DNA from: Minisyncoccota bacterium
GTDB lineage: Bacteria > Patescibacteriota > Minisyncoccia > Phycocordibacterales > UBA1006
Assembly (NCBI GenBank): GCA_021209525.1
Contig: JAJOIF010000004.1
Coordinates: forward strand, 35,730 to 99,729
Reading direction: 5' to 3'
Length of the DNA stretch: 64,000 nt
Made by a program: the position numbers and the translations under genes. This document shows, in pieces, positions 14,317-36,359 of this stretch. How positions within the stretch are numbered: position 1 is the first letter of the stretch; each line of letters begins with the position of its first letter. The notes below the pieces were generated by a model. It saw only the letters and a program-made list of their open reading frames with translations. It did no database searches and was not told where the DNA came from.

Positions 14317-14507
14317 TTGTGAACTTTTTGTTTCGTTCTATGACCCATTATGTATTCAATTGATATACACAATCAGGCTTTTGCCTCTTCTTAACGCAGA
14401 AGAGGAACGTGTGCCAATTTTCGAACTTGAGCACAATTGTTCGTTGCGTATAGACACAACATCGACCAATATACTAACGGTCAAAGACTCGTATAGTATT
14501 GGCAAAT

Positions 14508-15968
<1,461 letters not shown>

Positions 15969-17412: not shown

Positions 17413-17450
17413 AGAAAAACTCAGAACAGTACTGTTTTGAGTTTTTCTTT
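17413..17450. terminator. Bidirectional terminator between convergent LOG and mazF-like genes
   Basis: aaaaactcagaacagtactgttttgagttttt. Confidence 0.55.
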
Positions 17451-17870
17451 TATTTTACCAAATTCTTTCTTTGGCACATTACCGATCTTTTCAGTGTATC
17501 GCTTTTTATCGATAACCTTTACTTGCGAAAGAATTACATATGACGAATTCTTATGTTTAGGGTTGTGTAATTCAACATCAGAAATCTTGTGGTAAAAATT
17601 ATTATCCTTGCCCTTTATTGTTAAGGCTGCTGTAAAGAACAAATTTACTATCTTTTTTAATATCAGAACCGGTCTCAGGAAATTATCTTTTCCTTTTTCT
17701 TCAAAACCAATATTTTGTCCGATTTTAGCAAACCATATTTCGCGAGGATTGATATAAATAAAATCACCTACACCTCCACTCCTTCTCGCTGCAATAACTC
17801 TTTCTTTGCGTCTTCGCCGCCGCGATTGTAGGCACCTGCTTTTCCTGAACTCAAAATTACGCGATGACAT
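17421..17870 (-). CDS. MazF/PemK-family mRNA-interferase toxin (start uncertain; annotated ATG overlaps MGMT by ~100 nt)
   Basis: GDFIYINPREIWFAKIGQNIGFEEKGKDNFLRPVLILKK... matches the PemK/MazF core. An AGGAG-like sequence near 17775 suggests a later non-ATG start. Confidence 0.5.
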   Translation of the reverse strand: MSSRNFEFRKSRCLQSRRRRRKERVIAARRSGGVGDFIYINPREIWFAKIGQNIGFEEKGKDNFLRPVLILKKIVNLFFTAALTIKGKDNNFYHKISDVELHNPKHKNSSYVILSQVKVIDKKRYTEKIGNVPKKEFGKIKEKLKTVLF

Positions 17871-18025
17871 GGAATTGCTGGATCATAATTATTTTTCATA
17901 ATCGTTCCTACTGCGCGCGCAGCTTTGGGGTTTCCTGTGGCGCGTGCTACTTCGCCATAGGTCATGACAGAGCCTGCGGGTATTTTTGATACGACATGGA
18001 GGACTTTTTGGGTGAAGGTGGGCAT
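17768..18025 (-). CDS. Methylated-DNA-protein-cysteine methyltransferase DNA-binding domain protein (MGMT/Ogt family)
   Basis: 85 aa with the active-site motif PCHRVI and a helix-turn-helix region. Confidence 0.75.
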   Translation of the reverse strand: MPTFTQKVLHVVSKIPAGSVMTYGEVARATGNPKAARAVGTIMKNNYDPAIPCHRVILSSGKAGAYNRGGEDAKKELLQREGVEV

Positions 18026-18077: not shown

Positions 18078-21000
18078 TCATACACATATCCAAAATTTTG
18101 AGGTTTTTGATTCGATCAAGCCTTCATCATACGGCTCAGGTAGTTCATCATATAAAACATCTTTGATGGTTACTAAAACTTTTGCTCTGCCTTGTTGAGT
18201 TTTTCTCCAATCCAAAACAAATGCTGTTTGCTTTAGTGTTTTAAGTAACTCTTTTGCAACTTTTTTAATTTCCTTGATTTCATTTTCTTTCAAGTCTTCT
18301 TTGTAAAGCAAATCAAAAATCGCAAGCTCTTCTTCGATTAACTCTTCTCTCACTCCTCTTTTTTCCTCATCATTCAAAGATTCAGCAAATTTCATCAAAG
18401 CCTCAAAAAACTCTTCAATATTTTTTGAGCCAGAATTATATTCTGAAAGTAATTTTTCAAATTGCTCTACTAGTTTTTGTCTAGTCGGGTTCAACCTCAC
18501 CAATTCTTCAAGTTTTTCTTTCAAGGACTGCTTCAATTTTTCTGCTTCTTTTCTTTTATTTTTCTCAAAATACTTTCGCAATTTTTCAAAATCAATCTTA
18601 CTCAAATCATATGGTTTGTAATCTTCAGAAATCACATACCCTTCAGCAGTAATCGCATTATCAAGAAGCTCTTCAATAGCATCTGCAACGTCTTCTACAT
18701 TCACATCTTTTCGAGTCAGAATTCGCACCCTCTCTGCTAAAACTCGATACAATTTAACCACATTGAAAAATTCACTCGCGCTTGGGTCTGGCATAATAGC
18801 CCCCAAAAGACTCGTCGCACGATTACTCATCGTCAAAAATTCGTTCTTTGATTCTTCATCGGTCAAAATAGCATCAACTGCATTTTCTATTAAAGCCAAT
18901 TTTTCAAAATCTACTGCTTCACCAATTTGCACAATATTGATTCCATATTCACTACAATATTTATCAAGCTCGCCCAAAACTCCTCGTAATTCATTTACCA
19001 GTTCTGTTTTTGGTTTTATAGGCTTTGCATCTTCATCACCTCGCGCTCCATAAATAGCCAATGCTTTTTTCAGACTTCGAAATACTCCGATATAGTCCAC
19101 AATCAATCCATTTGTTTTTGCGCCCCACACACGGTTTGCACGAGCAATGGTTTGCATCAGAGTATGATTTTTCATTGGCTTGTCCAAATACACCGTCGAA
19201 ATAATCGGAGCATCAAATCCAGTCAGCCACATATTACACACAATCACAATTTTCAAAGGATCATTTACATCTTTAAATTTTTTTTCCAAATCCTCATTGA
19301 TCATTCTTCGGCGATGAGTTTCTATATCAAGCCCAAGCTTTCGGAAATCATCCACTTCGTTTTGAGTCGAACTCATCACCATCGCAATATCAGGACAGTT
19401 TGGCTGCGTTTTCATTTTGTTATACATTTTCACCGCAGTTGGTCGATCTATCGCCACAAACAACGCCTTACCATCATTCCCTTGGCTGTTAAAATGTTCA
19501 ATCACATCACGGGCAATAGTGTTCAATCGTTCTTCTCTCGTGATCAAATGATATTCAGTATTAAATTCTCGTTCAAGCTTTTTCTCTTGATCATCATCAA
19601 GCTCAAAAGTTTCAAGCACTGTTCCCAAATCCTGCCCTAAACTCTCCAAATCAATCTGCAGCTCTGGAATACGGTTATCGTAATACAAAGGCACTGTTGC
19701 CTTGTCATCCACAGACTGCTTAAAATCATAAATACTGACATAATCTCCAAAAGTGCTTTTGGTTTGTTCTTCTTCGCCAGAAATAAGCGGTGTTCCGGTA
19801 AAACCAATAAATGAAGCATTCGGTAAAGCCCGACGCATATTGAGCGCCAAAGTGTCATACTGACTTCTGTGTGCTTCGTCAGTCATCGCGATAATATCGC
19901 TTCGCTCTGAAAGTACAGGAAATTCCGTCTCGCCTTCTTGCAATTGGAATTTGTGAATCAAGGTGAAAATATTGCGATGGTCTTCGGTTAAAAGTTCGCG
20001 AAGTTTTTGCACACTGCTTGCACGTACCATTTCTTCTGGTTCAAGCACTGCACCCACACCGGCAAAATTTGCATAAATCTGCTTGTCGAGTTCCTGCCTG
20101 TCTGTTACCACAAGAAAAGTATAATTCCCTTCATATTTTCGCAAAATCTTTTGAGCGAAAAATACCATAGAATAACTTTTTCCTCCTCCTTGTGTATGCC
20201 AAAAGACCCCAATTCGCCCATTGTTTTCTTCTCGCTTTTCAAAAGATTTAATCGCATTATTTACTCCCAAATACTGATGATTTTTCCCAATCAATTTTAT
20301 CATCCCTTTGTTTGTATCTTGAAACAATACAAAGTTTTCAATAATATCAAGTAAACGCGTTTTGTCGCACATACCACGAAGCAAGGTTTCCAAATCCACC
20401 CTTCCTTTTTCTTCTTCATCACTAATTCTTTTCCAATCAGAAAAATGTTCAAATCCGCTCGTAATAGAACCCATCTTTGCATCAAGTCCGTTTGAAATAA
20501 TCAAAAGCTGGTTATACCAAAACATCTGCGGAATTGTGTCTTTATAGTCTCGAATATTACCATCAAAGGCATCTCGCAAGTTTTTGTGCGCAGCCTTAAG
20601 CTCGATAAACACCAAAGGCAAACCATTCACAAACCCCACCAAGTCCGCTCGGCGTTTATACATATCACCCAAGATCCACATTTGCGATACCAAAGTAAAA
20701 TGATTGTTCTCTGGATTATCAAAATCAATCACACGCACCGTTTCCACATCACGAGTTCCGTCACCGCTCACCACATCCACCTTGACCCCGTTTTTCAAAA
20801 GCTCATAGATTTCTTTATTCGCTTTGACCATACTCATTTTTGAGCGGTCTTTGGTGATTTCTTCTATTGCATCATCAATGGCACTTTTTGCAATGCTTGA
20901 ATTCAATTTCTCCAAAGTAGTCCGAAGACGAGAAACCAAGACAACCTGACCCTGATGTTCTCGCCCAAGCTTTGCATCACCTTCATCAGTATAGGCATTT

Positions 21001-21092
21001 ACAAAATCCATTTCGCCGTCGGTACCCCAAAGCTCCGACAAAAGCCGGATTACGGGTTGCTCTATGAGATTGTCTTCGTTGAAGGGGTTCAT
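18078..21092 (-). CDS. hsdR: Type I restriction enzyme R subunit
   Basis: 1004 aa. SF2 helicase motifs including MTDEAHRSQY (DEAH), GGGKSY, and a C-terminal coiled-coil. Confidence 0.9.
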   Translation of the reverse strand: MNPFNEDNLIEQPVIRLLSELWGTDGEMDFVNAYTDEGDAKLGREHQGQVVLVSRLRTTLEKLNSSIAKSAIDDAIEEITKDRSKMSMVKANKEIYELLKNGVKVDVVSGDGTRDVETVRVIDFDNPENNHFTLVSQMWILGDMYKRRADLVGFVNGLPLVFIELKAAHKNLRDAFDGNIRDYKDTIPQMFWYNQLLIISNGLDAKMGSITSGFEHFSDWKRISDEEEKGRVDLETLLRGMCDKTRLLDIIENFVLFQDTNKGMIKLIGKNHQYLGVNNAIKSFEKREENNGRIGVFWHTQGGGKSYSMVFFAQKILRKYEGNYTFLVVTDRQELDKQIYANFAGVGAVLEPEEMVRASSVQKLRELLTEDHRNIFTLIHKFQLQEGETEFPVLSERSDIIAMTDEAHRSQYDTLALNMRRALPNASFIGFTGTPLISGEEEQTKSTFGDYVSIYDFKQSVDDKATVPLYYDNRIPELQIDLESLGQDLGTVLETFELDDDQEKKLEREFNTEYHLITREERLNTIARDVIEHFNSQGNDGKALFVAIDRPTAVKMYNKMKTQPNCPDIAMVMSSTQNEVDDFRKLGLDIETHRRRMINEDLEKKFKDVNDPLKIVIVCNMWLTGFDAPIISTVYLDKPMKNHTLMQTIARANRVWGAKTNGLIVDYIGVFRSLKKALAIYGARGDEDAKPIKPKTELVNELRGVLGELDKYCSEYGINIVQIGEAVDFEKLALIENAVDAILTDEESKNEFLTMSNRATSLLGAIMPDPSASEFFNVVKLYRVLAERVRILTRKDVNVEDVADAIEELLDNAITAEGYVISEDYKPYDLSKIDFEKLRKYFEKNKRKEAEKLKQSLKEKLEELVRLNPTRQKLVEQFEKLLSEYNSGSKNIEEFFEALMKFAESLNDEEKRGVREELIEEELAIFDLLYKEDLKENEIKEIKKVAKELLKTLKQTAFVLDWRKTQQGRAKVLVTIKDVLYDELPEPYDEGLIESKTSKFWICV

Positions 21093-21105
21093 ATTTATAC
21101 TATAA

Positions 21106-22209
21106 TCAATTTATTAAATTATTTAAAGCGTTTTCAGCTCTCTCTATTAAATCATCGTAAGTTAAAACTTCAACCCAATGAAAATAAGAAAGAAGCCTTC
21201 TTAAGTTTTTTGGTTCTGCAGATATAGTTTGAGAAGTACTATTTTTTACCAATTCTTTACCGCGTCTTCCTATAAGTAAAATACCTTTTGGTTTATAGTA
21301 TTTCCCATATCTATCTTCAAGTATTTCGTGACCTGTTTCATCATCTCTTTCATGAGAATATTCACTATAGTAATATTCCATATAACCTGTTAATTGACCA
21401 AGAGATTCTGCTAATTTAGGTGAAATATATTGTCTTTCTCTATCATCAGCTCTTAGTAATTCTTCTGAAGGTAGTTTTACTTCTAAAATATCTGATAATC
21501 CATCTATTCTTAAAAGCCTACCATCAGGATGACCACTAAAACCTGCATCTCTAAAATCTAAATTCTTATATTCAGGACCAAAAATCCATGGATTATTTTT
21601 TAAGAAATTTTGAATATCTGAAACCTCTTTTACGTTTGGATCTTCTATGAGTTTTTTAAATTCTTTTATTTTTTCTTGCTTCTCCTGAATTTTATTTTTT
21701 GTTAAACCTTTTTTTATTAAATCAGGAACATCTAAATCAGAGGTTAAGTAGCCATCTTCAAAAAGTTTTATAAGAGTTTCTTTTCCTTTCTCATCACTAA
21801 CAAGAGTTTTTAATTTTTTATCTAAATCTTCGTCTAGCTCTAAATTATCTTCAAAAGAAAGCTTGCCAGCAGAAACAGAAGAAAGATTTGCAGAAGTAAT
21901 AAATTTCAAAAAATTTGTTAAAGTTATTAAATTTTTTGTATCAAGTCTCACTTCAGAAGCGGGTACAAGTTTACCAGCTTTAATTTCAAATTTTTGTATT
22001 TTTAATTCAACAACTTGGTCCTTCTGACTTATAAAAGTTGCTTTAATTTGAGTTCTACCTGTCTCGTAAATAATCTCCTCTTTGCTCTGAAAATCATCTG
22101 AAACAACAGAGAGTATTTTTCCATTAGGAAAATCCGAAGTATATATTTTATCTTCATGTTTATTTGAAACATAATCTTCTTCTGTCGGATCGTAATTACT
22201 TAAGCCCAT
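21106..22209 (-). CDS. Hypothetical protein with a PD-(D/E)xK-like nuclease signature, embedded between hsdS and hsdR (possible Shedu/DUF4263-like defence gene)
   Basis: GHPDGRLLRIDGLSDILEVKLPSEE carries a PD...(D/E)xK arrangement. Tight coupling to hsdS stop and hsdR start. Confidence 0.4.
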   Translation of the reverse strand: MGLSNYDPTEEDYVSNKHEDKIYTSDFPNGKILSVVSDDFQSKEEIIYETGRTQIKATFISQKDQVVELKIQKFEIKAGKLVPASEVRLDTKNLITLTNFLKFITSANLSSVSAGKLSFEDNLELDEDLDKKLKTLVSDEKGKETLIKLFEDGYLTSDLDVPDLIKKGLTKNKIQEKQEKIKEFKKLIEDPNVKEVSDIQNFLKNNPWIFGPEYKNLDFRDAGFSGHPDGRLLRIDGLSDILEVKLPSEELLRADDRERQYISPKLAESLGQLTGYMEYYYSEYSHERDDETGHEILEDRYGKYYKPKGILLIGRRGKELVKNSTSQTISAEPKNLRRLLSYFHWVEVLTYDDLIERAENALNNLIN

Positions 22210-22213
22210 AATT

Positions 22214-23383
22214 TTATTTCACCTCAACTCTCCCGCCGACTAACTGCGGAATGAGGATGTCTCTTGTTTTTTGTAAATTTTGGTTTTGTTTTTCAAGATT
22301 ATATTTTTCAATCATCATCTCTTTTACATGTTCACCAAATTTTTCACACAAATCCACTGGTGGTAAATAAACTTTTTTTGCTGAAAATTCTGGCCAATGA
22401 CCCTTGTAGTCGTTGAAATAAATTAAATCTTTTGTTGCAAAATGTAACCAAAAAATATTTCTATAATTTTCTTTGCTAGGATAAAACGGCAAGACATTTT
22501 GAATAGCTGAAAACGGAAACATAATCAAATTTTGATAACATGTGTGATTTGCAAAAACAATAACAGGATTTTCTGTACTTGCATTTATACCTGGCTCATC
22601 ATTATGATAACCAATCACACCACTTTTCCCTTGATCTAAAATAGGAACATTTCCAATTGGTAAAGCTGTTTTATTGTCGTATTTTTTACCAACCGAAACT
22701 CTTTCAATCAAATCCTCAACTTTCTTCACCTCCCACCCATTAGGTAATCCATCTTTTACCGGTCTTACAAACCATTCTTTGTAGAGGGTTTGAGCGAGGG
22801 TTTCGAGGGTTTTTATTTTCTTTTGATTCACCTCAATCAAATCATCATACGCCGAAAGCACCTCCGCAATTTTCTTTTGTTCTTTATATTCTGGAACCAA
22901 AAAATCAATAGAAAGCATTTTTTCAAGACTCAAGTTATCTTGAGCAGCACCACTTGAAATAGATTGAAAATCTTTTTTAAACAAATCGAGCAAATATTTT
23001 ACAAATCTTACACCAGAAACATTTTCATAAGACCTAAATCCAACAACACTATCGGGAAAACATGCTGGTATTTTTAGAATAGCACTCTCAGAAATATTCG
23101 CCGCAATTGTAATACAAAGAGTATCAGGTTCCCAAAGTTTACTTTGAGCGAGTCCTTTTTCGTTATATGTTTGGGAATATTCTGAAATATAACAGTTAGC
23201 AGATTTTATATCTGAAGTTTGAATAAAAGGATATTCACCTCCATATAGACTTGAATCATTTCTTGGACGATGACGAGAGCGACCTCTATTTAATTCACCT
23301 AAATCGGTCAACCTCACCCTCTTCCACTCCGCCTTGCGAGTTTTCTCCCCACTATTCTTTTGTGTTGTTTGTGTTTTATTCAT
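22214..23383 (-). CDS. hsdS: Type I restriction-modification specificity subunit
   Basis: 389 aa with two target-recognition-domain halves and central/distal conserved repeats. Confidence 0.85.
   Translation of the reverse strand: MNKTQTTQKNSGEKTRKAEWKRVRLTDLGELNRGRSRHRPRNDSSLYGGEYPFIQTSDIKSANCYISEYSQTYNEKGLAQSKLWEPDTLCITIAANISESAILKIPACFPDSVVGFRSYENVSGVRFVKYLLDLFKKDFQSISSGAAQDNLSLEKMLSIDFLVPEYKEQKKIAEVLSAYDDLIEVNQKKIKTLETLAQTLYKEWFVRPVKDGLPNGWEVKKVEDLIERVSVGKKYDNKTALPIGNVPILDQGKSGVIGYHNDEPGINASTENPVIVFANHTCYQNLIMFPFSAIQNVLPFYPSKENYRNIFWLHFATKDLIYFNDYKGHWPEFSAKKVYLPPVDLCEKFGEHVKEMMIEKYNLEKQNQNLQKTRDILIPQLVGGRVEVK
23309..23383. repeat. 75-bp direct repeat, copy A (authentic hsdS 5' end)
   Basis: ~90% identical to 24201-24273. 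Confidence 0.8.
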
Positions 23384-23455
23384 AAATTCTTGTTTGTGGA
23401 TAACTATTTACATTTTTGACCATTTTTGATATATTGTAAATGTAGGTTTTTCCTA

Positions 23456-24166
23456 CTAATCACGCGGTCCCGCTTTTGCGGGATTTTCGCTTTTTGGCTC
23501 GTAATTTCTTTTTCCTGTATAGAGTCGCCCAAAATCAAAATATTTATCTTTAATTTTATGCAGTTCTTCTGCGACTTGATTTCTCACTCCACAAATCCCA
23601 ATCTTTTTATTTTCAATTTTCAATCTTTGTAAAGGACCCTGCATATCAGAATCCCCAGAAAACAAAATAACTGCAGAAAACTTTTTTGCATCATCTAATA
23701 TGTCCATAGTCATCTCTACATCAAAATTACATTTTGGTTCTTCTATTAAAATACCTGGTTTATGTAATTCGTCTACAAGTTCTTCAATTTTACTTTTTAC
23801 ACCATCATCAAAAAGAGTCATAGTTTTACGCTGAAAAAACATTCCTTCTTTTATTGTCTTGGGAATATACTTCATTGGTTTTGTTTTTAGGATTGCACCA
23901 GTTTTTAAAATTCTTTTATGAAAAGCTTTTGAGTTTTTCAAATCTCTGGTATTTAAACCATAGTAAACTTTTATTTCTTGAATATTTTTATATGTTTTTA
24001 GTTGTTCTATCAAGTCTTCTATTCTAAATTTCCAACCCAAAACATCTTGCCAGTGGAACATATTTGTTAAATCCAAATACACAAAAACCACAGGCTCTTT
24101 TTCTAACCATTCTAGATAGTCTTCTCTTACCATAATTTTATTTTTAATATCCTGTGGTATTTCCAT
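23456..24166 (-). CDS. NYN-domain (LabA-like PIN-fold) nuclease
   Basis: VFVYLDLTNM... and AVILFSGDSDMQGPLQRLKIENKKIGICGV match the NYN/LabA fold. Confidence 0.65.
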   Translation of the reverse strand: MEIPQDIKNKIMVREDYLEWLEKEPVVFVYLDLTNMFHWQDVLGWKFRIEDLIEQLKTYKNIQEIKVYYGLNTRDLKNSKAFHKRILKTGAILKTKPMKYIPKTIKEGMFFQRKTMTLFDDGVKSKIEELVDELHKPGILIEEPKCNFDVEMTMDILDDAKKFSAVILFSGDSDMQGPLQRLKIENKKIGICGVRNQVAEELHKIKDKYFDFGRLYTGKRNYEPKSENPAKAGPRD

Positions 24167-24167
24167 A

Positions 24168-24272
24168 TTATTTTCTAAAATTAAATTTAAGTAAAATGCC
24201 CAACTTCACCCTTTTCCACTTTGCCTTGCGAGTTTTCTCCCCACTATTCTTTTGTGTCGTTTGTGTAGTCAT
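24168..24272 (-). pseudogene. Truncated duplicate of the hsdS 5' end (34 codons, MTTQTTQKNSGEKTRKAKWKRVKL... then stop) immediately upstream of the NYN gene
   Basis: Reverse complement of 24201-24272 encodes MTTQTTQKNSGEKTRKAKWKRV; the hsdS N-terminus is MNKTQTTQKNSGEKTRKAEWKRV. Its stop is 1 nt before the NYN ATG. Confidence 0.7.
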
Positions 24273-24273
24273 G
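24201..24273. repeat. 75-bp direct repeat, copy B
   Basis: caacttcacccttttccactttgccttgcgagttttctccccactattcttttgtgtcgtttgtgtagtcatg matches copy A. Confidence 0.8.
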
Positions 24274-24276
24274 TAT

Positions 24277-25746
24277 TTATAGTAATAACAAATAATCTAA
24301 AGGAATCTTCACTATACTATCCTCTGATAATTCTAAAGAATCACTACCAAAAACAATTCCATACTTTGCTCGACCTTTTGTTTTTTTCATAGTTGTTTGA
24401 ACTTGGTTTATTTCATTCTTTGAAAAACCAATTTCAAATACAATTTCTGTATTGTCTTTAAATCGAACAATAAAGTCCGCTCCGCCTGACCCATAATCAT
24501 AGTATGCGTCTACTTGTCCATAGAGTTCTTTTGAAAATAGTAAAGCCAAATAATCTTCAAGAATTTTTCCTTTTATATCAACACCTATTACACCACTCAA
24601 AAGACCTATTCTAATATTAGGACTCATAAAGAGGTATTTCCCACTTTTTTTTACTTGCTTATATGGTTGTCCGTATGCTTTTAATTCATAAAGAATTTCA
24701 GCATCAGTGAGAGCGGATAGAATTTTATTCAAAGTTAACGGAGCCAAATCTATTGTTTCCGATAGTTTTTTTATACTTATCTCATCACTATTTGCAAGAA
24801 GAAAAAGTACATTTGGGATTTTTACCAGAGTCTCTGCATTAAAGTCATTAAGCAAAATCAAATCTCTTTGCACAATATTAATCAGAATCATTGCTTTTAT
24901 TCTTTCAAGGGCTTCTGACTCGTTAATCATTTCAGCAGAAAATGGAAAAGAGCCTCTATAAAAATAGTCTTTCTTGAGATCGTTTAAATTTGTAATAGTA
25001 GAAAGTTTTTTAATAATTACTGATTGTAGTTGTTTTATTTTATCAAAAACTTCTTGAGCATTTTTGCTATGAAAAATTGCTCGAGCTAGATTTTTAGATA
25101 AATCTTTCTCTGGAAAGATATCTTTATGTAAAGTTAGATACTCACAAAACTTTGTAGGTAAAACCCTTTCTGTTTTTGACCTTCTCACCAAATCTTTGTT
25201 TTTTTGATTAAGGAAAATTGCAGAAGATCCTGTTGCAATAACAAGAATATTTTTGTTTCCTTTTGTTTTATCAAAAAGTAATTTTAAGAACAAATCCCAC
25301 TTTGGATCGTATTGAATTTCATCAATAAGTAAAAGAATTTTCTTTTTATTCTGCAATAAATTTCCCCAAACATTTTTTTCTAAATAATCAATGAATTCAC
25401 CCAAAGAAATATCTTCAGAAAGCAAACGGTCAACAGAAATATAAATCCTTTCATCTACCGTAGTGTTAATATCTTTAGATAAATGGTTTACTGGTTTATT
25501 TATTTCAAAAAAATATAATTGAGATAACAAGGTTGTTTTACCAACACCACGAATACCTGGTAGAATAATTATTTTTTCCTCTTCGGGTAATTCTCCTGAT
25601 ATAAGTTTATTTACATATTTTTGTAACATTAAATAAGAGGAACGAGTTTTTCTCTTTTTCCCTTCAGGTGTTTGAAAGTAGCTTTTTAGATATTGATCTA
25701 AATTTGACTTCCATTCGATATAGAATTTTTCAATATTTTTGTTCAT
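24277..25746 (-). CDS. AAA+ ATPase (archaeal-ATPase/AAA_14 + DUF4143-like) embedded in the type I R-M operon
   Basis: Walker A ILPGIRGVGKTTLLSQL, Walker B LLIDEIQY. Confidence 0.65.
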   Translation of the reverse strand: MNKNIEKFYIEWKSNLDQYLKSYFQTPEGKKRKTRSSYLMLQKYVNKLISGELPEEEKIIILPGIRGVGKTTLLSQLYFFEINKPVNHLSKDINTTVDERIYISVDRLLSEDISLGEFIDYLEKNVWGNLLQNKKKILLLIDEIQYDPKWDLFLKLLFDKTKGNKNILVIATGSSAIFLNQKNKDLVRRSKTERVLPTKFCEYLTLHKDIFPEKDLSKNLARAIFHSKNAQEVFDKIKQLQSVIIKKLSTITNLNDLKKDYFYRGSFPFSAEMINESEALERIKAMILINIVQRDLILLNDFNAETLVKIPNVLFLLANSDEISIKKLSETIDLAPLTLNKILSALTDAEILYELKAYGQPYKQVKKSGKYLFMSPNIRIGLLSGVIGVDIKGKILEDYLALLFSKELYGQVDAYYDYGSGGADFIVRFKDNTEIVFEIGFSKNEINQVQTTMKKTKGRAKYGIVFGSDSLELSEDSIVKIPLDYLLLL

Positions 25747-25979
25747 ATTACAATATAATCATATCACATTTCTGATTATATCCTAGTGTTTTCAAAAAGT
25801 AAATACCCTTTATATCCTTATTTTAAAGAGTTTTTAACACATTTCTGATATTGAGTTTTTGGCATTTCACTTTTTATATGATTTCGTATAAAAAGTGAAA
25901 TACCAAAAATGTGTATAATTATACATAAACTATACACATTTTATACATATTCTGATTTTGAATTGTAAAATAAGGCTTT

Positions 25980-27497
25980 TTACAGTATTTTCTTCAGATT
26001 TTCTTTGATTTTCTTTTCTAAAACCGCTGATTCTTTAAACAGATTCTCTAGGTCATTTGAAAGATTTTTGACTTTTTCTTGGAAATCCTCTTCTGATTCT
26101 TCTATTACTTCAGTACCCACATATCGCCCTGGGTTGAGCGAATATCCAGCTTCAGCAACTTCTTGCAATGTTGCAACCTTACACAGTCCTTTTACATCTT
26201 CGTATTTCCCTGCCCCGCTTTCGCCACGATACGCACGAACAATATTTGCAATTTGATCTATTTGCTCTGGAGTGAATTCTCTATGTGCTCGATCAATTTG
26301 TCGGTAAATATTTCTTGCATCAATAAAAAGAATTTTATCTTTTCTATTAGAATTTATTTTTCCTTTATCAAAAAACCAAAGTGTACAAGAAAGAGTTACG
26401 GTATAGAAAAAATTTCCACCAATCGCAACCATCACATCTACCACACCTGACTCGATCAACTTTTTTCTAATTTCAAGTTCTGTTCCTCGTGCGTCACTCG
26501 CAGAATTTGCCATAACAAATCCTGCGCGTCCGTTTTTGTTTAAGCTTTCATAAAAATGCTCAATCCACAGATAGTTTGCATTGTCCACTGTTGGAATACC
26601 AAGTCTATATCTTTTATCTTCTCGTACTTTTTCCTTGTCTACACCACTGACATTAAACGGAGGATTTGCCATGACAAAATCAAATTGCCCCACACTTTCA
26701 TGCAAATCTTCATAAAAAGTATTTCCTTGTTTTATTTGCCCTTCGAGTCCGTGTACTGCAAGGTTCATTTTACACAAATCGGCACTTATTTCTGATTTTT
26801 CTTGTCCATAAATTGAAATAATATTTTGAGTGCTGTTTTTGTGTTTTTTTACAAATTCCGCGCTCTGTACAAACATGCCACCTGATCCACATGCAGGGTC
26901 ATAGACTTTTCCTTGGTACGGTTCGAGGATTTCTACAATCAATTTTACAAGTGAAGTCGGAGTAAAGAACTCTCCTCCACCCTGACCTTCTGCCATAGCA
27001 AAACTTGAAAGGAAATATTCATAAATTTTTCCAAAAACATCACCTTCTACATCCATCGGGATTTCACTAAAAGTTTTAAGAAGTCCAATCAAAATATGAT
27101 TTTCAAGTTTGTTGTATGTTTTTGGTAATACGCTTTTGAGGTTGGGATTATATTCCTCAATTTCTTTCATCGCATCATTGATTGCTTTTCCTATATTTAC
27201 ACCTTCTTTAAGATTGAGTAAATATGAAAAGCGAGCGATTTCAGGAATATACATAATTCCTTTTGCTTGATATTCTTCAGGACCGATCTTTCTCTCGCGA
27301 ACCAGAGAAGCTCCTGTTTTTTTAGTATTCTTCAGTTCATTATCCGCGTGTTCAAATTTAAATTCAGCAAATCTCAAGAAAATAAGCCCTAGAACTGGTT
27401 GAGAATATTGATGAACGGTAAGACCAGAATTTGCTCGCAATGAGTTTGCAGCATCCCACAATCGCTCTTCTAATTTTTTAAGACTTTCTTTTGCCAT
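25980..27497 (-). CDS. hsdM: Type I restriction-modification N6-adenine DNA methyltransferase subunit
   Basis: 505 aa. HsdM N-terminal domain. Motif I region [10 protein letters not shown]. Motif [11 protein letters not shown]. Confidence 0.9.
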
Positions 27498-27506
27498 ATT
27501 GTTATA

Positions 27507-28181
27507 TTAAAGCATTTTTTCACTTTTTATACTAGTAAAACCTTTTGCTGTAATAACCAAATGATCTTGCACTTGTACGCCCAATAATTCCCCCGCCTTT
27601 ACGAGTCTTTTAGTTACTTCAACATCCTCTATCGAAGGTTCCAATGATCCAGAGGGGTGATTATGAGTAATAATAATACTCGAAGCATGTAATCGTAAAG
27701 CTGGTTCAAAAACTTCTCGTGGGTGCACTAAGGATGCGTCGAGAATTCCGACGGAAACAATGATTCGTTCAATTAATCGACTTTGTGTGTCTAAATAAAA
27801 AACCACTAGATGTTCTTTTTTGGAATCTTTAATGTCAGAACACAACAGCCAAACATCTTTTGGGGATAGTATTTCTACTTGATCATTTTGAGTAAAGCGT
27901 TTTCCTAATTCAATAACTGCAAGTATTTGTAATGATTTCACCTTACCTAATCCTTTAATATCTAAAAAATCATTCAAGGAAATATCTTGGACTCCTTTCT
28001 TTTGAATTACCCGGAGCGCTTTACGAGAAATTTCAAGCACATTAATCCCTTGAATTCCTGAGCTAAGCAAAATAGCAAGCAGCTCATAATCTTGCATTTT
28101 TCGTGTTCCATATTTTTCTAATTTTTCACGAGGTAAATATTTTTCATACATATTTAAATATATTAAAATAATCATGCTCAA
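27507..28181 (-). CDS. RadC-like JAB-domain protein (UPF0758)
   Basis: HhH-like N-terminus and JAMM motif HNHPSGSLEPSIEDVEVT. 10 nt upstream of hsdM. Confidence 0.8.
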   Translation of the reverse strand: MSMIILIYLNMYEKYLPREKLEKYGTRKMQDYELLAILLSSGIQGINVLEISRKALRVIQKKGVQDISLNDFLDIKGLGKVKSLQILAVIELGKRFTQNDQVEILSPKDVWLLCSDIKDSKKEHLVVFYLDTQSRLIERIIVSVGILDASLVHPREVFEPALRLHASSIIITHNHPSGSLEPSIEDVEVTKRLVKAGELLGVQVQDHLVITAKGFTSIKSEKML

Positions 28182-28255
28182 TAGCTTATTAAATATAATA
28201 TAATCTACTTCATATAAAAATAAAAACAGCCCCTTCCAGAACTGTTTCTTTACCC

Positions 28256-28648
28256 TTACTCTGCATACTCAACATCCCACAAGAATCCATTGCTGCCTTG
28301 TGGCCATATACGATCCTCAAAACTATTATTAATATCAAGGCATATCTTGCCGCGCATGTTATAGAGCAATACCTTGCCATGTGGTGTTGCAATACGCACA
28401 CCACGATGTGACTGCATGAAATCAAAGGGGCGCTCACCATTTTGCTGTTCCGGCTCTGTGGATATAATCATAATCTCATTCCCGGTACGCGGATCGGTGG
28501 TAATTTTGAAATGACCTTGATCATAATGGTGAACAATATCTATGATGATTTTTTCAAAGTCTTTTTGTAGGTAAAATTTTTCATCAACGGTGCGATCAAT
28601 AAAGATATGATCGAATCTTTTTTTGAATATTTCTATTATATTTTCCAT
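28256..28648 (-). CDS. Hypothetical protein (130 aa)
   Basis: Clean ORF with balanced composition; no recognisable motif. Confidence 0.4.
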   Translation of the reverse strand: MENIIEIFKKRFDHIFIDRTVDEKFYLQKDFEKIIIDIVHHYDQGHFKITTDPRTGNEIMIISTEPEQQNGERPFDFMQSHRGVRIATPHGKVLLYNMRGKICLDINNSFEDRIWPQGSNGFLWDVEYAE

Positions 28649-28736
28649 AGGTGCTTTTTTGTTTGTATGATACTCGTGTAAAAGTATGTGTCAATTGATG
28701 ACTATGATCAATTTTGAGATATTTTTATATCGCAGA

Positions 28737-29168: not shown

Positions 29169-29768
29169 TTACTGTAACTTTTTAACTTCAAAAGAGCCTG
29201 TATTATTACGATCTCTACCTGAGTAATATTCTGTTTGAAGCACTCCTTCATCTTCTAGCTTTGCAGATGCTGATCCCTCATGTATATGCATACTTTCAGG
29301 TGCATTATCTTTTGGTTTGTTTCTGTATTGATAATGTATTCTAGCCGTCCCGAATTCATCGACATTCATTGACGCTTCAAAACTGAAAGATTCTGATGTC
29401 TCTGTTTCCAGATAGATAAGTAGATGAGTCCATGTTTGTTTAATACAAAATTTCTTTATCTGTATTGGACCGTTGGCATGATTTGAATGAGATGTTATGG
29501 TTCCAGACCAATTTCCGTCTATGATAGGAGTTTTTATACTAGCAATTTTGCGAATAAAATTATTTCTCCACAAATTAGTTTCGAACCACTTATGTAAAAT
29601 TCCATAAAATCCAATTACCGAAGGAGCTTCTATCCACCACGGTAAGGGAAAGATGTTTTTTGAAAATAGATATAATCCCCATGCAAGCAATATCGATATT
29701 ACTGCAAGATAAAGCGACACATACTTGTGTTCTTCTGAGTTTATTGAATATGGATGTATGTTTTGCAT
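29169..29768 (-). CDS. Predicted membrane effector: two N-terminal TM helices + ~130-aa beta-rich C-terminal domain (Cap15-like architecture)
   Basis: TM1 YVSLYLAVISILLAWGLYLF. Second hydrophobic segment PLPWWIEAPSVIGFYGILHKW. Start is 3 nt after the NTase stop. Confidence 0.45.
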   Translation of the reverse strand: MQNIHPYSINSEEHKYVSLYLAVISILLAWGLYLFSKNIFPLPWWIEAPSVIGFYGILHKWFETNLWRNNFIRKIASIKTPIIDGNWSGTITSHSNHANGPIQIKKFCIKQTWTHLLIYLETETSESFSFEASMNVDEFGTARIHYQYRNKPKDNAPESMHIHEGSASAKLEDEGVLQTEYYSGRDRNNTGSFEVKKLQ

Positions 29769-29770
29769 AG

Positions 29771-30694
29771 TTATTTATTCCAATTATCCCAAAGTTCCAC
29801 AAAAGCACTAATAGTTTTTACTGCATCATCTTGGTTCCACTGCTCCTCACTTTCACCAAATAATTCATGAAAATGGTTTTGACACATACATTGACCAAGA
29901 GCTAATGCAGACCAGAGATGTTTTAATACTGCGTGTACGGTTGTAGAATGATCACCAGTAAAGTGCTCATCAGGGACATTGTAAATTAATGACTGTAAGA
30001 AATATGAAGGCGCTACACCATCGGTAAGTTTACCTGTATCAACAAGATGATTTCTCATATTTTTGAAAATTCGCACTGTTGGCTTAAAACGCCCGCCTGT
30101 ACGAGTATCTGAATTTTTATCAACTCCATTTTGATAGTGGTGCTCTGGATAATTTATGATTCCACGATTTGTTGTGCGATGATAGAATTTAACACCCTCT
30201 TCCGCATTATGACTATTAGTACCATAGAAATAATCATATTTTCGATAATTTATAACAGGAACAATGTCGGCCTTTAGTCTTCCTGAAGAAGGTTTGAGTT
30301 TAATTGACTTATTACCACTTGTATCAACGGAAAGTAATCCATAATATTTAGTCAGAGCAGAAATGACATCTCTGCGTAAATCTTGCCAATCATAAACAGC
30401 ACTACCATATGCCTGATCATGAGCATTTTTCTGATCATAAGGAAGTTCGTGTGCATTATGACCAAATGTAGTTGTTAACTCGACAACTACATCCACATCA
30501 CTATCTGCTCGAATATTTGTATCGTTTTTATATGATCCCTGGAGATAGATTTTTACCGAACCATTACTGATACGATCTTTAAGTGGTGACTGATCATGTG
30601 TCAGTGCTGTTCGAATAGATTCATGAGTTGCTTTTGCTGAAACAGTAGCACCTTGATTCGACCATGTTGTTAGTTGAGAGAGTGGAATTGCCAT
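29771..30694 (-). CDS. Pol-beta-superfamily nucleotidyltransferase of the SMODS/CD-NTase type (candidate CBASS cyclase)
   Basis: GS-x9-DSDVDVVVEL gives GS...DxD. A downstream LKADIVPV supplies the third acidic residue on a beta-strand (the 'DIVP' signature of cGAS/DncV-like enzymes). Confidence 0.6.
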   Translation of the reverse strand: MAIPLSQLTTWSNQGATVSAKATHESIRTALTHDQSPLKDRISNGSVKIYLQGSYKNDTNIRADSDVDVVVELTTTFGHNAHELPYDQKNAHDQAYGSAVYDWQDLRRDVISALTKYYGLLSVDTSGNKSIKLKPSSGRLKADIVPVINYRKYDYFYGTNSHNAEEGVKFYHRTTNRGIINYPEHHYQNGVDKNSDTRTGGRFKPTVRIFKNMRNHLVDTGKLTDGVAPSYFLQSLIYNVPDEHFTGDHSTTVHAVLKHLWSALALGQCMCQNHFHELFGESEEQWNQDDAVKTISAFVELWDNWNK

Positions 30695-30695
30695 A

Positions 30696-31607
30696 TCATT
30701 TAAATAGATTATCGATTTCAGCCGACCAATTATCGCTATGTATTATCCTATCTTTTTGATAGTTATTTTTAAGTATTTCTGCTTTGGTCATTTGAGAAAG
30801 CACCTCCCAATCAGTACCTAACACGTAAGTAGCATTACCATAATGCAAACTTTCAAGTAAATAAATACTTTTATCTTTATATCCAAACACAAGATACCCA
30901 GTAAAACCTCCCAACCCTATCGCTATTTGATCAGGCTTGTAAGATTCAATTTTTTTGAACCTGTCAGCTATCATTGCTTTTTCTCCAACAGATCTTTTTT
31001 CAATAATTTCTTTTACTCTTTCGTTAACCTTACTCCAGGGATTTATTCCAGGAGGTAGTAACTCCCAGTTGAGTCTAATAATTTTAGTTTTGACTGGTAG
31101 AGTCAAATTTTCTTTAAAAATCTGAAACTCATCAAATATTTCAAAAAACAAATTCATTGCATGCTTAATATCAGCATATTCACTTTTTACTTTTTTAAAT
31201 TTCTTTGAAATAACTATTTTCTTTGCATCATTTTCAGCAATTTGAAACTCCAAACTAGGAGGAGGGACTAGTTCTCTTTGCCATCTTTCATATGGCATGT
31301 AATTTACACCACTATGTTCATAGCCGCCCCAATCAGTTAATGTCCATTCTCTAGGATAATAAACTGTCTCTTTTGGTAGATCTTTTCTAGGATTTTCTTT
31401 ACCTTCTGCATTAAACTCTGAAACATTTCCAAATATCGCAGGAAGAACAGTCTCACCCACATTGAGATTATTAGAGAAACCTATCTTTTTAAGTAAATCA
31501 AATAAATTATCATTAATCTCAATACCGACATAAAAATTCTCATTCTCTTTTATTAAGGAGAGGTATTTTTCAGGATTAATTACTCTTTTGTGTCTTTTCT
31601 TTGCCAT
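30696..31607 (-). CDS. Hypothetical protein (303 aa), second gene of the repressor-NTase-effector operon
   Basis: Overlapping or abutting neighbours (4-nt and 1-nt gaps). No recognisable motifs. Confidence 0.45.
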   Translation of the reverse strand: MAKKRHKRVINPEKYLSLIKENENFYVGIEINDNLFDLLKKIGFSNNLNVGETVLPAIFGNVSEFNAEGKENPRKDLPKETVYYPREWTLTDWGGYEHSGVNYMPYERWQRELVPPPSLEFQIAENDAKKIVISKKFKKVKSEYADIKHAMNLFFEIFDEFQIFKENLTLPVKTKIIRLNWELLPPGINPWSKVNERVKEIIEKRSVGEKAMIADRFKKIESYKPDQIAIGLGGFTGYLVFGYKDKSIYLLESLHYGNATYVLGTDWEVLSQMTKAEILKNNYQKDRIIHSDNWSAEIDNLFK

Positions 31608-31610
31608 AAT

Positions 31611-32228
31611 TTAGTATAGATCACCAGGAAGTACAGCAACGACTACTCCTTGTATGATGCAGTTATCTGTTAATATAATCGGCTTATGGTCTTTGTTTGT
31701 TGATTTCGGTTGAAGTACAACAGCACCATTCGCTTTCTTGAACACCTTGACGGTTGCTTCGTCATTTATAAGGGCAACAACCTTTTCATTATCTTCCGCT
31801 GTATCCTGTTGTCGAATCAAAAGCAGATCTCCACTATTAATTCCTGCAAGATTCATCGAGTCACCCATAGCACGCAATAGAAAATATTTTGAACCCTTTT
31901 TAGCTAGCCCTGTTGATACAGGAATCATGGCTTGAATATTTTCTTCAGCTAGTACTGGTGAGCCACAAGTTACAGCACCAACCAAAGGAACATCAACTGT
32001 GCTTATTGAAGCTGTTGTCTGCGATCCAGTAAGGATAAGCTGTCGTCCGATTTTCTTTATTAGACCAGCCTCGATAAGTCGATTAACAACAAGGCTCGCA
32101 GATCGTGGAGATTTACCGCCTGTAACCTCATTAATCTCATCGAGAGTAGGGCTTTTGCCATAATGAACAATCTTGTTACGGATAAGGGCAAATGCTTTTT
32201 TGTCTTTGTCGCTAAGGTTATTTGTCAT
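31611..32228 (-). CDS. LexA/CI-like repressor (HTH + S24 autopeptidase)
   Basis: HTH PTLDEINEVTGGKSPRSASLVVNRL. Cleavage-site-like VGAVTCG. Ser/Lys dyad region GDSMNLAG...K. Start placed at MTNNLSDK; the upstream in-frame extension is palindromic operator DNA. Confidence 0.8.
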   Translation of the reverse strand: MTNNLSDKDKKAFALIRNKIVHYGKSPTLDEINEVTGGKSPRSASLVVNRLIEAGLIKKIGRQLILTGSQTTASISTVDVPLVGAVTCGSPVLAEENIQAMIPVSTGLAKKGSKYFLLRAMGDSMNLAGINSGDLLLIRQQDTAEDNEKVVALINDEATVKVFKKANGAVVLQPKSTNKDHKPIILTDNCIIQGVVVAVLPGDLY

Positions 32229-32286
32229 AGTATAAATAGTATAAATTATACTATACAAAAAAGCAAGTATTTGCTATGATATTCTT
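32229..32286. promoter_or_regulatory. Divergent promoter/operator region with palindromes
   Basis: TAGTATAAATTATACTA (32237-32253), direct repeat agtataaat x2, near-palindrome gcaagtatttgc. Confidence 0.4.
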
Positions 32287-34371: not shown

Positions 34372-34765
34372 ATTTCAAGATCAGTTTCTTGATGAGCTAC
34401 GGAAAGTGCCAATCATTCAGGTTGCTTGCGAGAAATCAGGACTATCTCGTCAAAGTGTCTATCGGTGGAGAAAGGAAGATAAAGAATTTCTCAAGAAAAT
34501 GGATAGTGCACTTTCTGAAGGTGTCGCCTTGGTAAATGACATGAGTGAAAGTCAATTACTTACGCTCATCAAAGAGAAAAACTATCCTGCAATTAGTTTT
34601 TGGCTCCGTCACCGAAATGATAATTACAAAAACAAGCTTGAGATTACTACTAAAGATGATAACGAGGAACTAACACCGTCACAAGCGAAAATTGTAAAGC
34701 AGGCGCTCAAACTCGCAAAAATTACTAAGTCGAAATCTATTAAAAATATTAATCGTAAAAAATAA
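34358..34765 (+). CDS. Phage terminase small subunit-like HTH protein
   Basis: HTH VACEKSGLSRQSVYRWRKE. Sits immediately upstream of the terminase large subunit. Confidence 0.5.
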   Translation: MKKNKFQDQFLDELRKVPIIQVACEKSGLSRQSVYRWRKEDKEFLKKMDSALSEGVALVNDMSESQLLTLIKEKNYPAISFWLRHRNDNYKNKLEITTKDDNEELTPSQAKIVKQALKLAKITKSKSIKNINRKK

Positions 34766-34767
34766 TT

Positions 34768-36264: not shown

Positions 36265-36359
36265 TCGCGAGTATGCAATATTTCGCTAGTTCTGCATAGA
36301 CTTAGCAAAACGCTCAAATTGCGTCATCAATATAATATGGAGACGCAATATATAAGTAA

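Follow-up and report, generated by a model that had tools for sequence, protein, structure and literature searches.

A probable mobile type I restriction-modification unit with exchangeable cassette slots, and within it a conserved module of an NYN nuclease and a predicted antisense RNA, in a Patescibacterium

Patescibacteria have tiny genomes, rarely carry CRISPR and depend heavily on restriction-modification (R-M). Genes nested inside R-M loci are known from PrrC in EcoprrI and the rlo genes of Campylobacter, and small antisense RNAs that overlap the 3′ end of a protein gene are known from B. subtilis, whose type I toxin-antitoxin pairs txpA/RatA and bsrG/SR4 act by duplex-dependent mRNA decay, and from the likewise 3′-overlapping par/Fst. 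The RRDM island of enteropathogenic Escherichia coli (EPEC) carries DarTG2 between hsdS and hsdR (PMC12255303), and defence systems are embedded in VPI-2 of V. cholerae (10.1101/2024.04.04.588119). The relevant passages of two further sources describe type I R-M subunits with PIN-like nucleases coupled to them (PMC5499597) and ‘guilt-by-embedding’ as the origin of the PDC families (10.1101/2024.01.29.577857). Here, we analysed a window of 64 kb from the Minisyncoccota contig JAJOIF010000004.1, and in it a type I R-M operon whose subunit genes are interspersed with other genes. With a probability of about 0.8, we read this region as a mobile type I R-M unit of the form radC-hsdM-[slot 1]-hsdS-[slot 2]-hsdR with exchangeable cassette slots, one of its cassettes being a module of an NYN nuclease gene and an antisense RNA. 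Embedding is the norm for this R-M family and, as the pertinent parts of earlier work document, a published phenomenon (10.1101/2024.01.29.577857; PMC12255303; PMC5499597). The nesting is thus a textbook case, and its value lies in three related loci, cassette borders resolved to the base and a duplication in hsdS that records one insertion.

The unit consists of eight consecutive open reading frames (ORFs) on the minus strand, running from 28181 down to 18078 (positions are those of the whole window, and L-numbers denote related loci used for comparison): radC, hsdM, an ATPase gene, an hsdS remnant, the NYN gene, hsdS, the gene for SduA and hsdR. They are separated, in operon order, by 9, 233, 4, 1, 72, 4 and 13 nt, and a terminator scan predicted no intrinsic terminator on the minus strand within the radC-hsdR unit. 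A preliminary description of this DNA had given the same eight ORFs in the same order, with most gaps at 0-15 nt and a spacer of about 230 bp bearing a palindrome between hsdM and the ATPase gene; all of this we recovered, the spacer measuring 233 nt (25747-25979) and containing an inverted repeat of 26+26 nt. Profile searches of the operon proteins against Pfam and PADLOC upheld the domains behind its protein labels and sharpened two of them. What it had called a PD-(D/E)xK-like protein is the Shedu effector SduA, and its AAA+ ATPase is an AAA_14 protein, probably of the AAA_14/DUF4143 (COG1373-type) family, that matches the candidate family PDC-S01 in the PADLOC run which that description had proposed. 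It had also named assignment of the three inserts to housekeeping functions as grounds for giving up its view; the domain searches gave none of them such a role, NYN being a PIN-like nuclease whose relatives have R-M genes next to them about 40% of the time. GC content is 24-31% in the cargo genes, against 33-42% in hsdM and hsdR.

The backbone is that of a type I R-M system, with an HsdM that has an N6 methyltransferase and an N-terminal domain, an HsdS with two target recognition domains (TRDs), and an HsdR that combines nuclease, SF2 translocase and C-terminal domain. The methyltransferase gene hsdM (25980-27497, minus strand) matches N6_Mtase (2.9e-94) and HsdM_N (2.4e-18) in Pfam and MTase_I in PADLOC (6e-211). 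Intact, two-TRD hsdS (22214-23383, minus strand) matches Methylase_S (7.9e-24) and PADLOC Specificity_I (7.3e-88) over residues 24-384 of its 389, and hsdR, encoding the restriction and translocase subunit (18078-21092, minus strand), matches HSDR_N (6e-44), SWI2_SNF2 (4.7e-70), T1R_D3-like (1e-21), T1RH-like_C (5.8e-33) and PADLOC REase_I (5.9e-186). At the head of the unit stands a radC-like gene for a JAB-domain protein (27507-28181, minus strand; Pfam RadC 1.8e-38 and UPF0758_N), which probably starts at the ATG near 28151; DNA homology to three close relatives (L003, L004, L170) begins at 28138. It lies 9 nt upstream of hsdM. The radC-hsdM pair is found also in L003, L004, L139, L162 and L170, and together with RadC-NYN-methylase loci these show radC repeatedly heading R-M operons in Patescibacteria.

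To what extent this arrangement is shared can be judged from its relatives. An HsdM scan of species-representative genomes yielded 80 loci, in 49 of which hsdM, hsdS and hsdR could all be placed, and a slot was counted as filled when more than 250 bp lay between subunit genes. By this measure the hsdS|hsdR slot was filled in 36 of the 49 and the hsdM|hsdS slot in 13; both were filled in 10, at least one in 39 and neither in 10, and some relatives hold 6-7 embedded ORFs. Across the 83 embedded ORFs, matches range widely over defence families, among them AbiE, AbiL, Kiwa, AriA/PARIS, Gabija- and Septu-like ATPases, PDC-S70, SIR2/HerA, Abi_2, RloB, RhuM and toxin-antitoxin genes.

The closest comparisons place the borders of the cassettes. 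L004, a metagenome-assembled genome (MAG) of Zambryskiibacteriota, shares 67% amino acid identity with the window in RadC, 77% in HsdM and 94% in HsdR, and holds AbiEi/AbiEii between hsdM and hsdS and an ATPase-TOPRIM protein between hsdS and hsdR. Its blastn alignment is interrupted at four points: 25858, the start of hsdS, 22210 (where hsdS stops) and 21112, which is 20 nt ahead of the ATG of hsdR. Between 25858 and 21112, DNA homology is confined to the 5′, central (22881-22720, 97.5%) and 3′ (22293-22210, 93%) conserved parts of hsdS, with differing TRDs, and it then runs through hsdR over 21112-18078 (91.6%). L003, a Saccharibacteria MAG with an HsdM 96% identical to that of the window, has a junction of the L004 type. 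The order in L170 is radC-hsdM-spacer-ATPase-hsdS-KAP_NTPase-hsdR; its ATPase, in the same slot, is an 88% homologue of the one described here, NYN is missing and a KAP NTPase stands in place of SduA. Homology to L170 is unbroken over 28138-24245 and resumes at 22287-22206 and 21118-18077, so that the borders of the second slot against this locus are 22206 and 21118. The borders at which DNA homology is lost and regained agree among all three close-relative comparisons.

Since the orthologous L004 and L170 carry different cargo on the same backbone, the inserts are not ancestral. The preliminary description had proposed that this locus is a hotspot for unrelated defence and nuclease cargo, and had left it to orthologous loci to show whether the inserts are conserved components; the differing cargo between identical borders supports the former, and the lack of this cargo set in L004 and L170 speaks against the latter. 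Its further step, from three inserts in one operon to a composite island rather than a plain R-M system, stands as to the composite nature of the unit, but not as to its being unusual, given that 39 of 49 relatives are filled, with up to 6-7 ORFs. The operon as a whole appears to be mobile too, as the homology of the radC-to-hsdR unit to L004 and L170 has sharp borders (~28138 and 18078) and the genomic contexts of these loci differ. Most likely, cargo is swapped by recombination in the conserved flanks, that is, the hsdM 3′ end with the spacer, the conserved segments of hsdS and the hsdR 5′ end. Slot 1 holds a PDC-S01-type ATPase gene with a putative promoter of its own and a probably later insertion of NYN and antisense RNA, and slot 2 the Shedu gene sduA.

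How the NYN module may have entered slot 1 can be traced through the hsdS remnant, a 34-codon ORF (24168-24272, minus strand) that repeats the start of hsdS, whose product begins MTTQTTQKNSGEKTRKAKWKRVKLG and whose stop lies 1 nt before the NYN ATG. The repeat (24180-24266 against 23288-23374) spans 87 nt at 85% identity and includes an exact direct repeat of 35 nt (23331-23365 and 24223-24257), at which two short-read contigs from Logan break: L001 reproduces the window over 30000-24228 and L169 over 24252-23336, both at 100% identity. These contigs come from independent runs and have no break other than the one at the 35-nt repeat, which rules out an assembly artefact. The remnant diverges precisely at the boundary between the conserved N-terminal region of HsdS and TRD1. 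In L170 the ATG of intact hsdS is found 2 nt past the ATPase stop, in the window the remnant begins 4 nt past the same stop, and homology across this ATPase|hsdS junction extends to 24245. When the remnant and the live hsdS are aligned together with L004, either copy shows L004 variants that are absent from its counterpart, and the two 5′ copies therefore appear to derive from different alleles. Simple target-site duplication as the source of the repeat was rejected, given copies only 85% identical, their distinct L004 variants and the pre-insertion junction seen in L170. We infer that the remnant is the original hsdS start of the ATPase|hsdS junction. The ‘NYN module plus hsdS’ would have been imported from another locus, leaving the resident hsdS start behind, with an illegitimate left join at the end of the resident conserved region; the order hsdM-NYN-hsdS is present in many relatives. 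Recombination between the 87-nt direct repeats, with their exact 35-nt core, would cleanly and precisely excise the NYN module and restore the ATPase|hsdS junction.

A truncated hsdS copy, and an operon broken by a structured spacer of 233 nt and a convergent promoter, might be read as signs of an R-M system in decay, with insertions disrupting the operon and hsd genes on their way to becoming pseudogenes. This we regard as very improbable, as hsdM, hsdS and hsdR are full-length, with complete domains and full coverage by their hidden Markov models (HMMs), the remnant is succeeded by an intact hsdS, the unit has no predicted terminator on the minus strand, and relatives with filled slots are the majority.

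The NYN insert itself is a compact, self-contained unit of ~800 bp. Its gene (23456-24166, minus strand) encodes a LabA-like protein of 236 aa (PF01936; Pfam NYN 6.7e-16, 59.5 bits with the cut-off at 24.2). In a comparison of 36 sequences that reach down to 27% identity, the active-site residues N35, D149, D172 and D174 are invariant and D32 nearly so, and K145 and G171 are invariant as well. An AlphaFold model (pLDDT 75.7) finds its best PDB matches in 2qip (TMt 0.75) and the NYN domain of MARF1, 5yaa (TMt 0.71), and we predict an intact NYN-fold nuclease. A search at E <= 1e-5 gave 647 homologues. The best 120 of these have 68-77% identity and a length of ~234 aa, and those among them with a named taxon belong without exception to Patescibacteria, from several lineages. 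The clade is tight: clustering at 50% leaves two full-length near relatives, and the next are at ~30% identity. In some genomes a second, more distant NYN paralogue is located near the conserved one (L083, 1924-2547; L137).

Opposite the 3′ end of this gene we predict a small RNA of ~55 nt on the plus strand (23434-23497, transcript ~23441-23495), which is convergent with NYN and covers the final 40 nt of that gene in antisense. It comprises a hairpin (23442-23456), the linker UAAUCACGCG (23457-23466), a terminator stem (23464-23490) and a U-run ending at 23495, and the terminator scan listed a terminator-like site on the plus strand. A sigma-70-type promoter precedes it (23407-23435, plus strand), composed of TTTACA, 14 nt and the extended -10 element TGATATATT, with 17 nt between the hexamers and 10/12 matches together with the TG. 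Our covariance model of the RNA, R1, scores the window copy at 67.3 bits (E = 2.4e-12). Just upstream of the -35 lies a DnaA-box-like 9-mer, TTATCCACA on the minus strand (23395-23403), the sole perfect copy in the 64-kb window.

An alignment of 74 distinct NYN loci was used to assess conservation. Among loci the NYN coding sequence has ~70% nucleotide identity, whereas its last ~40 nt and the next ~35 nt are almost invariant. The protein tail encoded there occurs in two frames, as KSENPA-L/F-GGTA* or KSENPA-x-AGPRD/AGPHN*, from which it follows that the constraint acts on the nucleic acid. On the strand opposite NYN, the alignment conserves, in register, a -35 TTGAC(a/t), a spacer of 17-18 nt and an extended -10 TG-n-TATAcT (column counts of 45-74 for TTGAC, 63-64 for TG and 41-74 for T-A-T-A-c-T), followed by an RNA body with a 6-bp hairpin, in most cases with a GNRA loop, the linker CUAAUCACGCG and a GC-rich stem running into UUUUCGCUUUUU. 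Of the cells in the paired columns 99.5% are paired and 7 pairs are compensatory, values that 0 of 500 shuffles reached, slid-partner controls giving 28-45% paired; RNAalifold independently returned the same fold. The structure has 18 G-U cells against 5 non-pairs, and these, with the U-tract and the promoter, point to the strand antisense to NYN as the transcribed one. In 58 of the 74 loci the DnaA-box-like site is found with at most 1 mismatch, 34 of these copies being perfect; its position is almost constant, and 29 copies lie in each orientation.

The RNA and the nuclease gene travel together. In the metagenome scan, R1 matched one site at the NYN 3′ end in 76 of 80 loci, the contigs of the remaining four ending before that point, and it matched both NYN genes of L088. 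No orphan copies were found in the 1.7 Mb formed by the window and the loci, every R1 match lying at an NYN 3′ end. As both NYN copies of L088 have the RNA and the distant paralogues of L083 and L137 are without it, the RNA is specific to one NYN clade. Rfam 15 gave no gathering-level match in the operon, including 23300-23600, and at E <= 10 around the RNA only unrelated families far below threshold; among IMG/VR viral contigs there was no exact match to the RNA core. Literature searches on NYN/LabA with antisense RNA, toxin-antitoxin systems or the candidate phyla radiation returned nothing specific, and in their passages on NYN, LabA, restriction and embedding, two of the closest sources make no mention of an antisense RNA with NYN (10.1101/2024.01.29.577857; PMC5499597). 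As a prediction, the RNA gene itself is well supported by these data, and so, strongly, is the conservation of NYN, antisense RNA and DnaA-box-like site as one putative genetic unit. We could not find the NYN module with its RNA gene in Rfam 15 or the searchable literature, and consider it a new element in that sense.

A different view of the element 3′ of NYN would make it a recombination site of the cassette, comparable to integron attC, and not an RNA gene: NYN is cassette-like, often promoterless and placed directly after stop codons, and the element has hairpins and marks the 3′ border. We give this very little credence. The element has two separate short hairpins and a conserved primary sequence where attC would have one long imperfect palindrome; the -35/TG/-10 with 17-18 nt spacing and the U-tract terminator are conserved in register; and the sole recombinase among the scanned ORFs (~12-38 kb, a selection of the ORFs there) is a serine recombinase 13 kb away (36474-37655). 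The integron-cassette reading, which calls for a single imperfect palindrome with R″/R′ core sites at the 3′ end of the cassette and an integron integrase nearby, was rejected on these observations.

What the module does may be approached through the genes around it. In 55 of 64 loci NYN is read in the same direction as the gene upstream, and in 22 of these 55 it starts no more than 15 nt past the stop of that gene, a pattern of coupling that the window fits, with the remnant stop 1 nt ahead of the NYN ATG. Upstream genes (53 scanned) were N6_Mtase in 10 cases, RadC in 6, GmrSD in 2, MmeI and Mrr once each, and others; downstream genes (46 scanned) included Methylase_S (6), N6_N4_Mtase (4), ResIII (2), HSDR_N (2) and single cases of DpnI and GmrSD. 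In all, R-M genes of types I to IV account for ~40% of NYN neighbour genes. The module with its RNA is also encountered among housekeeping genes (ribosomal, Fic; L084-L087), and in L088 two NYN copies flank one hsdM.

These settings could be taken to mean that NYN and the antisense RNA control the R-M operon, setting the ratio or timing of modification and restriction through RNA pairing or through NYN cleavage of the polycistronic transcript, in the manner of C-proteins and of antisense RNAs in type II systems; antisense RNA control of an R-M system has reportedly been described for EcoRI by Mruk and Kobayashi, a review by whom is cited in PMC5499597. The module sits between the methylase gene and hsdS-hsdR, the order hsdM-NYN-hsdS recurs in L091, L139, L140, L142, L143, L117, L155 and L162, RadC-NYN-methylase-ResIII arrangements occur too, NYN is usually coupled to the upstream gene, and the RNA is complementary to the inter-cistronic operon transcript. 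Even so, such control is doubtful as the function of the module, which with its RNA is found away from R-M genes too (L084-L087), has ~55-60% non-R-M neighbours, and is absent from the same backbone in L170 and L004.

The housekeeping settings suggest instead an RNA-processing enzyme of Patescibacteria, for which the 3′ element would be no more than the end or stabiliser of its own mRNA, leaving defence cargo as two of the three inserts. The best 120 homologues, at 68-77% identity and from several Patescibacteria lineages where named, form a tight clade with the next relatives at ~30%, some copies have housekeeping neighbours, and the relevant part of an earlier study ties NYN/LabA to tRNA and rRNA processing through gene neighbourhood (PMC5499597). 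We consider this improbable nevertheless, in view of the variable position of the gene, its two copies in L088, the R-M genes of types I-IV that make up ~40% of its neighbours and its absence from the orthologous L170 and L004; in addition, G-U pairs, U-tract and the conserved -35/TG/-10 indicate transcription of the opposite strand.

The best reading, in our view, is that the NYN unit is a type I toxin-antitoxin-like or regulatory module, with a putative antitoxin role for the RNA. The NYN gene appears often to be promoterless and translationally coupled to the gene upstream, and the ~55-nt RNA, predicted to be strongly promoted, has perfect complementarity to a stretch of the mRNA that includes the stop codon. 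It may hold NYN expression low, for example via duplex-dependent mRNA decay, and loss of the RNA, for example when transcription is shut off during infection, would release the RNase. Measured against the usual definition of type I toxin-antitoxin systems, computation finds an antisense RNA with its own promoter and terminator, and in place of a small hydrophobic toxin a soluble nuclease of 236 aa. As NYN is no small peptide and its toxicity only presumed, we say that the unit may work like such a system and do not claim membership. Tentatively, and as a possibility with the odds somewhat against it, we suggest that NYN, RNA and DnaA-box-like site together constitute an undescribed R-M-associated module, widespread among Patescibacteria: a type I toxin-antitoxin-like switch, its RNase silenced by the RNA and the RNA promoter perhaps sensing DnaA or replication status, which inserts behind R-M stop codons and adds an RNA-targeting back-up or a layer of control.

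The other cargo of slot 1, encoded by the ATPase gene (24277-25746, minus strand), matches AAA_14 in Pfam (1.3e-21) and PDC-S01 in PADLOC (3.8e-24, residues 42-436). Its match to DUF4143, at 23.2 bits (6.2e-05), is below the Pfam cut-off of 28.1, and close homologues carry PF13635; the protein is probably an ATPase fused to a nuclease domain, of the PDC-S01 type. The ATPase motifs are intact (Walker A GIRGVGKTT from residue 64, Walker B LLLIDEIQ from 138), and a PDB sequence search returned spurious P-loop matches only. In slot 2, sduA (21106-22209, minus strand) has an SduA_C domain (PF14082; 3.4e-14, 53.7 bits against a cut-off of 27) and matches 16 PADLOC SduA models, the best at 8.2e-27. 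From what is known of the PD-(D/E)xK motif, we take the D...EVK residues of SduA to be catalytic; DILEVK, from residue 240, aligns with DIIEVK of the Shedu structure 8ps4 (whole-sequence E = 0.014) and is followed by a GQLTGY motif. An SduA homologue occupies the same hsdS|hsdR slot in L006. Literature searches on DUF4143/AAA_14 in defence, and on Shedu in type I R-M loci, added little. Going by the annotations of these families, the unit could provide layered defence, in which the R-M enzyme would cut unmethylated incoming DNA and the co-transcribed cargo nucleases would serve as back-up or abortive-infection effectors.

Several points weigh against this account of a mobile unit with defence cargo and a toxin-antitoxin-like module. 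Type I toxins are mostly small membrane peptides, unlike a nuclease of 236 aa, although SymE/SymR and RalR/RalA are exceptions with nuclease toxins. The NYN clade is unusually well conserved and also found among housekeeping genes (L084), which could point to an RNA-processing or regulatory role rather than to a toxin. The exchange of cassettes by recombination is deduced from the breakpoints, the two-allele argument for the hsdS remnant draws on ~10 variable sites, and the activity of the R-M system and of each cargo gene is predicted from the DNA sequence. PDC-S01 is a candidate defence family, for which we found no experimental validation in the literature (PMC12988326). In the part of their work that deals with it, HEC-09, the sole NYN candidate assayed by Payne et al., gave no protection (10.1101/2024.01.29.577857).

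The spacer between hsdM and the ATPase gene (minus strand) is, by comparison with L003, L004 and L170, a mosaic of three pieces. As RNA it folds with z = -6.8 relative to shuffled sequence. The first piece, ~95 nt directly after hsdM (25979 to ~25885), is common to L003 (11518-11612) and L004 (11563-11657; locus coordinates approximate) and absent from L170. Some 75 nt of it (25957-25885) are identical in the window, L003 and L004, although the hsdM DNA is only 76-86% identical; it contains a promoter-like TTTACA-N18-TATAAA and a 14-bp hairpin. The second is a palindrome of 54 nt formed by the inverted repeat (25856-25909, 92% complementary), which comes directly after the hsdM stop in L170 and of which L003 and L004 have the 3′ arm alone. 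The third is a leader of ~110 nt belonging to the ATPase cassette, with a promoter-like TTTACT-17-TATAAT at 25803-25775, and is kept in L170. Neither hairpin precedes a U-tract, and an intrinsic terminator at 25856-25909 was rejected, with no U-tract on either strand and none listed by the terminator scan. Among 168 loci, the conserved spacer element was found in L001, L003 and L004 only.

Further features lie around the operon. Just upstream of radC, a 130-aa ORF (28256-28648, minus strand) has no Pfam or PADLOC match; within 28222-28694 it is preceded by the best promoter-like site of the region (TTGACA-16-TATCAT, 11/12) and followed by a terminator-like hairpin at 28249-28222. Next door, also on the minus strand, is a type I cyclic-oligonucleotide-based anti-phage signalling system (CBASS), with an oligonucleotide cyclase at 29771-30694 (PADLOC 9.6e-107) and a two-transmembrane (2TM) Cap15 effector at 29169-29768 (8.7e-57). 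Upstream of this pair, on the same strand, are a 303-aa protein without a family match (30696-31607) and an S24/LexA-like repressor (31611-32258). A phage-like block on the plus strand (33094-37655) encodes an N6_N4_Mtase methylase, a small helix-turn-helix protein resembling a terminase small subunit, a DEAD/Terminase_6C protein resembling a large terminase and a large serine recombinase, and may be a cryptic prophage or satellite that bounds the defence island. Directly downstream of hsdR (17421-18025, minus strand), an ORF for a MazF/PemK-like toxin (PF02452, 3.4e-11) overlaps an 85-aa ORF with a 6-O-methylguanine methyltransferase DNA-binding domain (4.2e-29). A complete 16S rRNA gene (14504-15959, minus strand, 1378 bits) is flanked by pth and a LOG-like gene at a distance of ~2 kb from the defence island, and no 23S or 5S rRNA gene was found anywhere in the window. 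Unlinked rRNA genes are known in small-genome Patescibacteria, and a window with 16S alone fits this.

If our suggestion for the NYN module is right, it would give bacteria mostly without CRISPR an RNA-targeting back-up or control for restriction. It is a testable candidate for a new RNA-controlled defence element or element of R-M control, and would add a structured RNA family. Among toxin-antitoxin systems, it resembles txpA/RatA, bsrG/SR4 and par/Fst in that a predicted convergent small RNA, driven by a strong promoter and ended by a terminator of its own, is fully complementary to the mRNA of the protein gene at the 3′ end, and it resembles type I pairs generally in that the RNA and NYN genes are always linked (76/76 NYN 3′ ends in the metagenome loci). 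It differs from these pairs in its 236-aa NYN nuclease, in the DnaA-box-like site at the RNA promoter and in a protein gene that is often promoterless and coupled to R-M genes. HEC-09, an Hma-embedded candidate to which NYN has a weak PADLOC match (3e-05), is likewise an NYN protein nested in a multi-gene restriction-type system, and differs by an extra N-terminal domain, as far as the passages on it describe (10.1101/2024.01.29.577857).

The other two cargo genes also have close known families. PDC-S01 (COG1373) joins an AAA_14 ATPase to a DUF4143 PD-(D/E)xK domain, an architecture that the ATPase here probably shares (HMM match 3.8e-24), its DUF4143 part falling below the Pfam cut-off; the definition of the family itself goes back to genes nested in BREX, DISARM and type I R-M loci. 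Shedu (8ps4, 8ps5) is likewise a single-gene PD-(D/E)xK effector with SduA_C/DUF4263, and its D...EVK aligns with that of SduA. Similarity to the solved Shedu proteins is recognisable only in the C-terminal nuclease core (E = 0.014), the N-terminal half matching other PADLOC SduA subtypes, and sduA differs further in being flanked by gaps of 4 and 13 nt, without a separate promoter region. As in the known embedded loci, the accessory nuclease and ATPase genes are co-directional with, and lie between, hsdM, hsdS and hsdR, their kinds vary among related backbones and, as in the RRDM island, hsdS|hsdR is the commonest slot (here 36/49). Unlike those loci, the unit described here has both slots filled, a duplicated hsdS 5′ end that records an insertion, a radC-like leader gene and a Patescibacterium with a small genome as its host.

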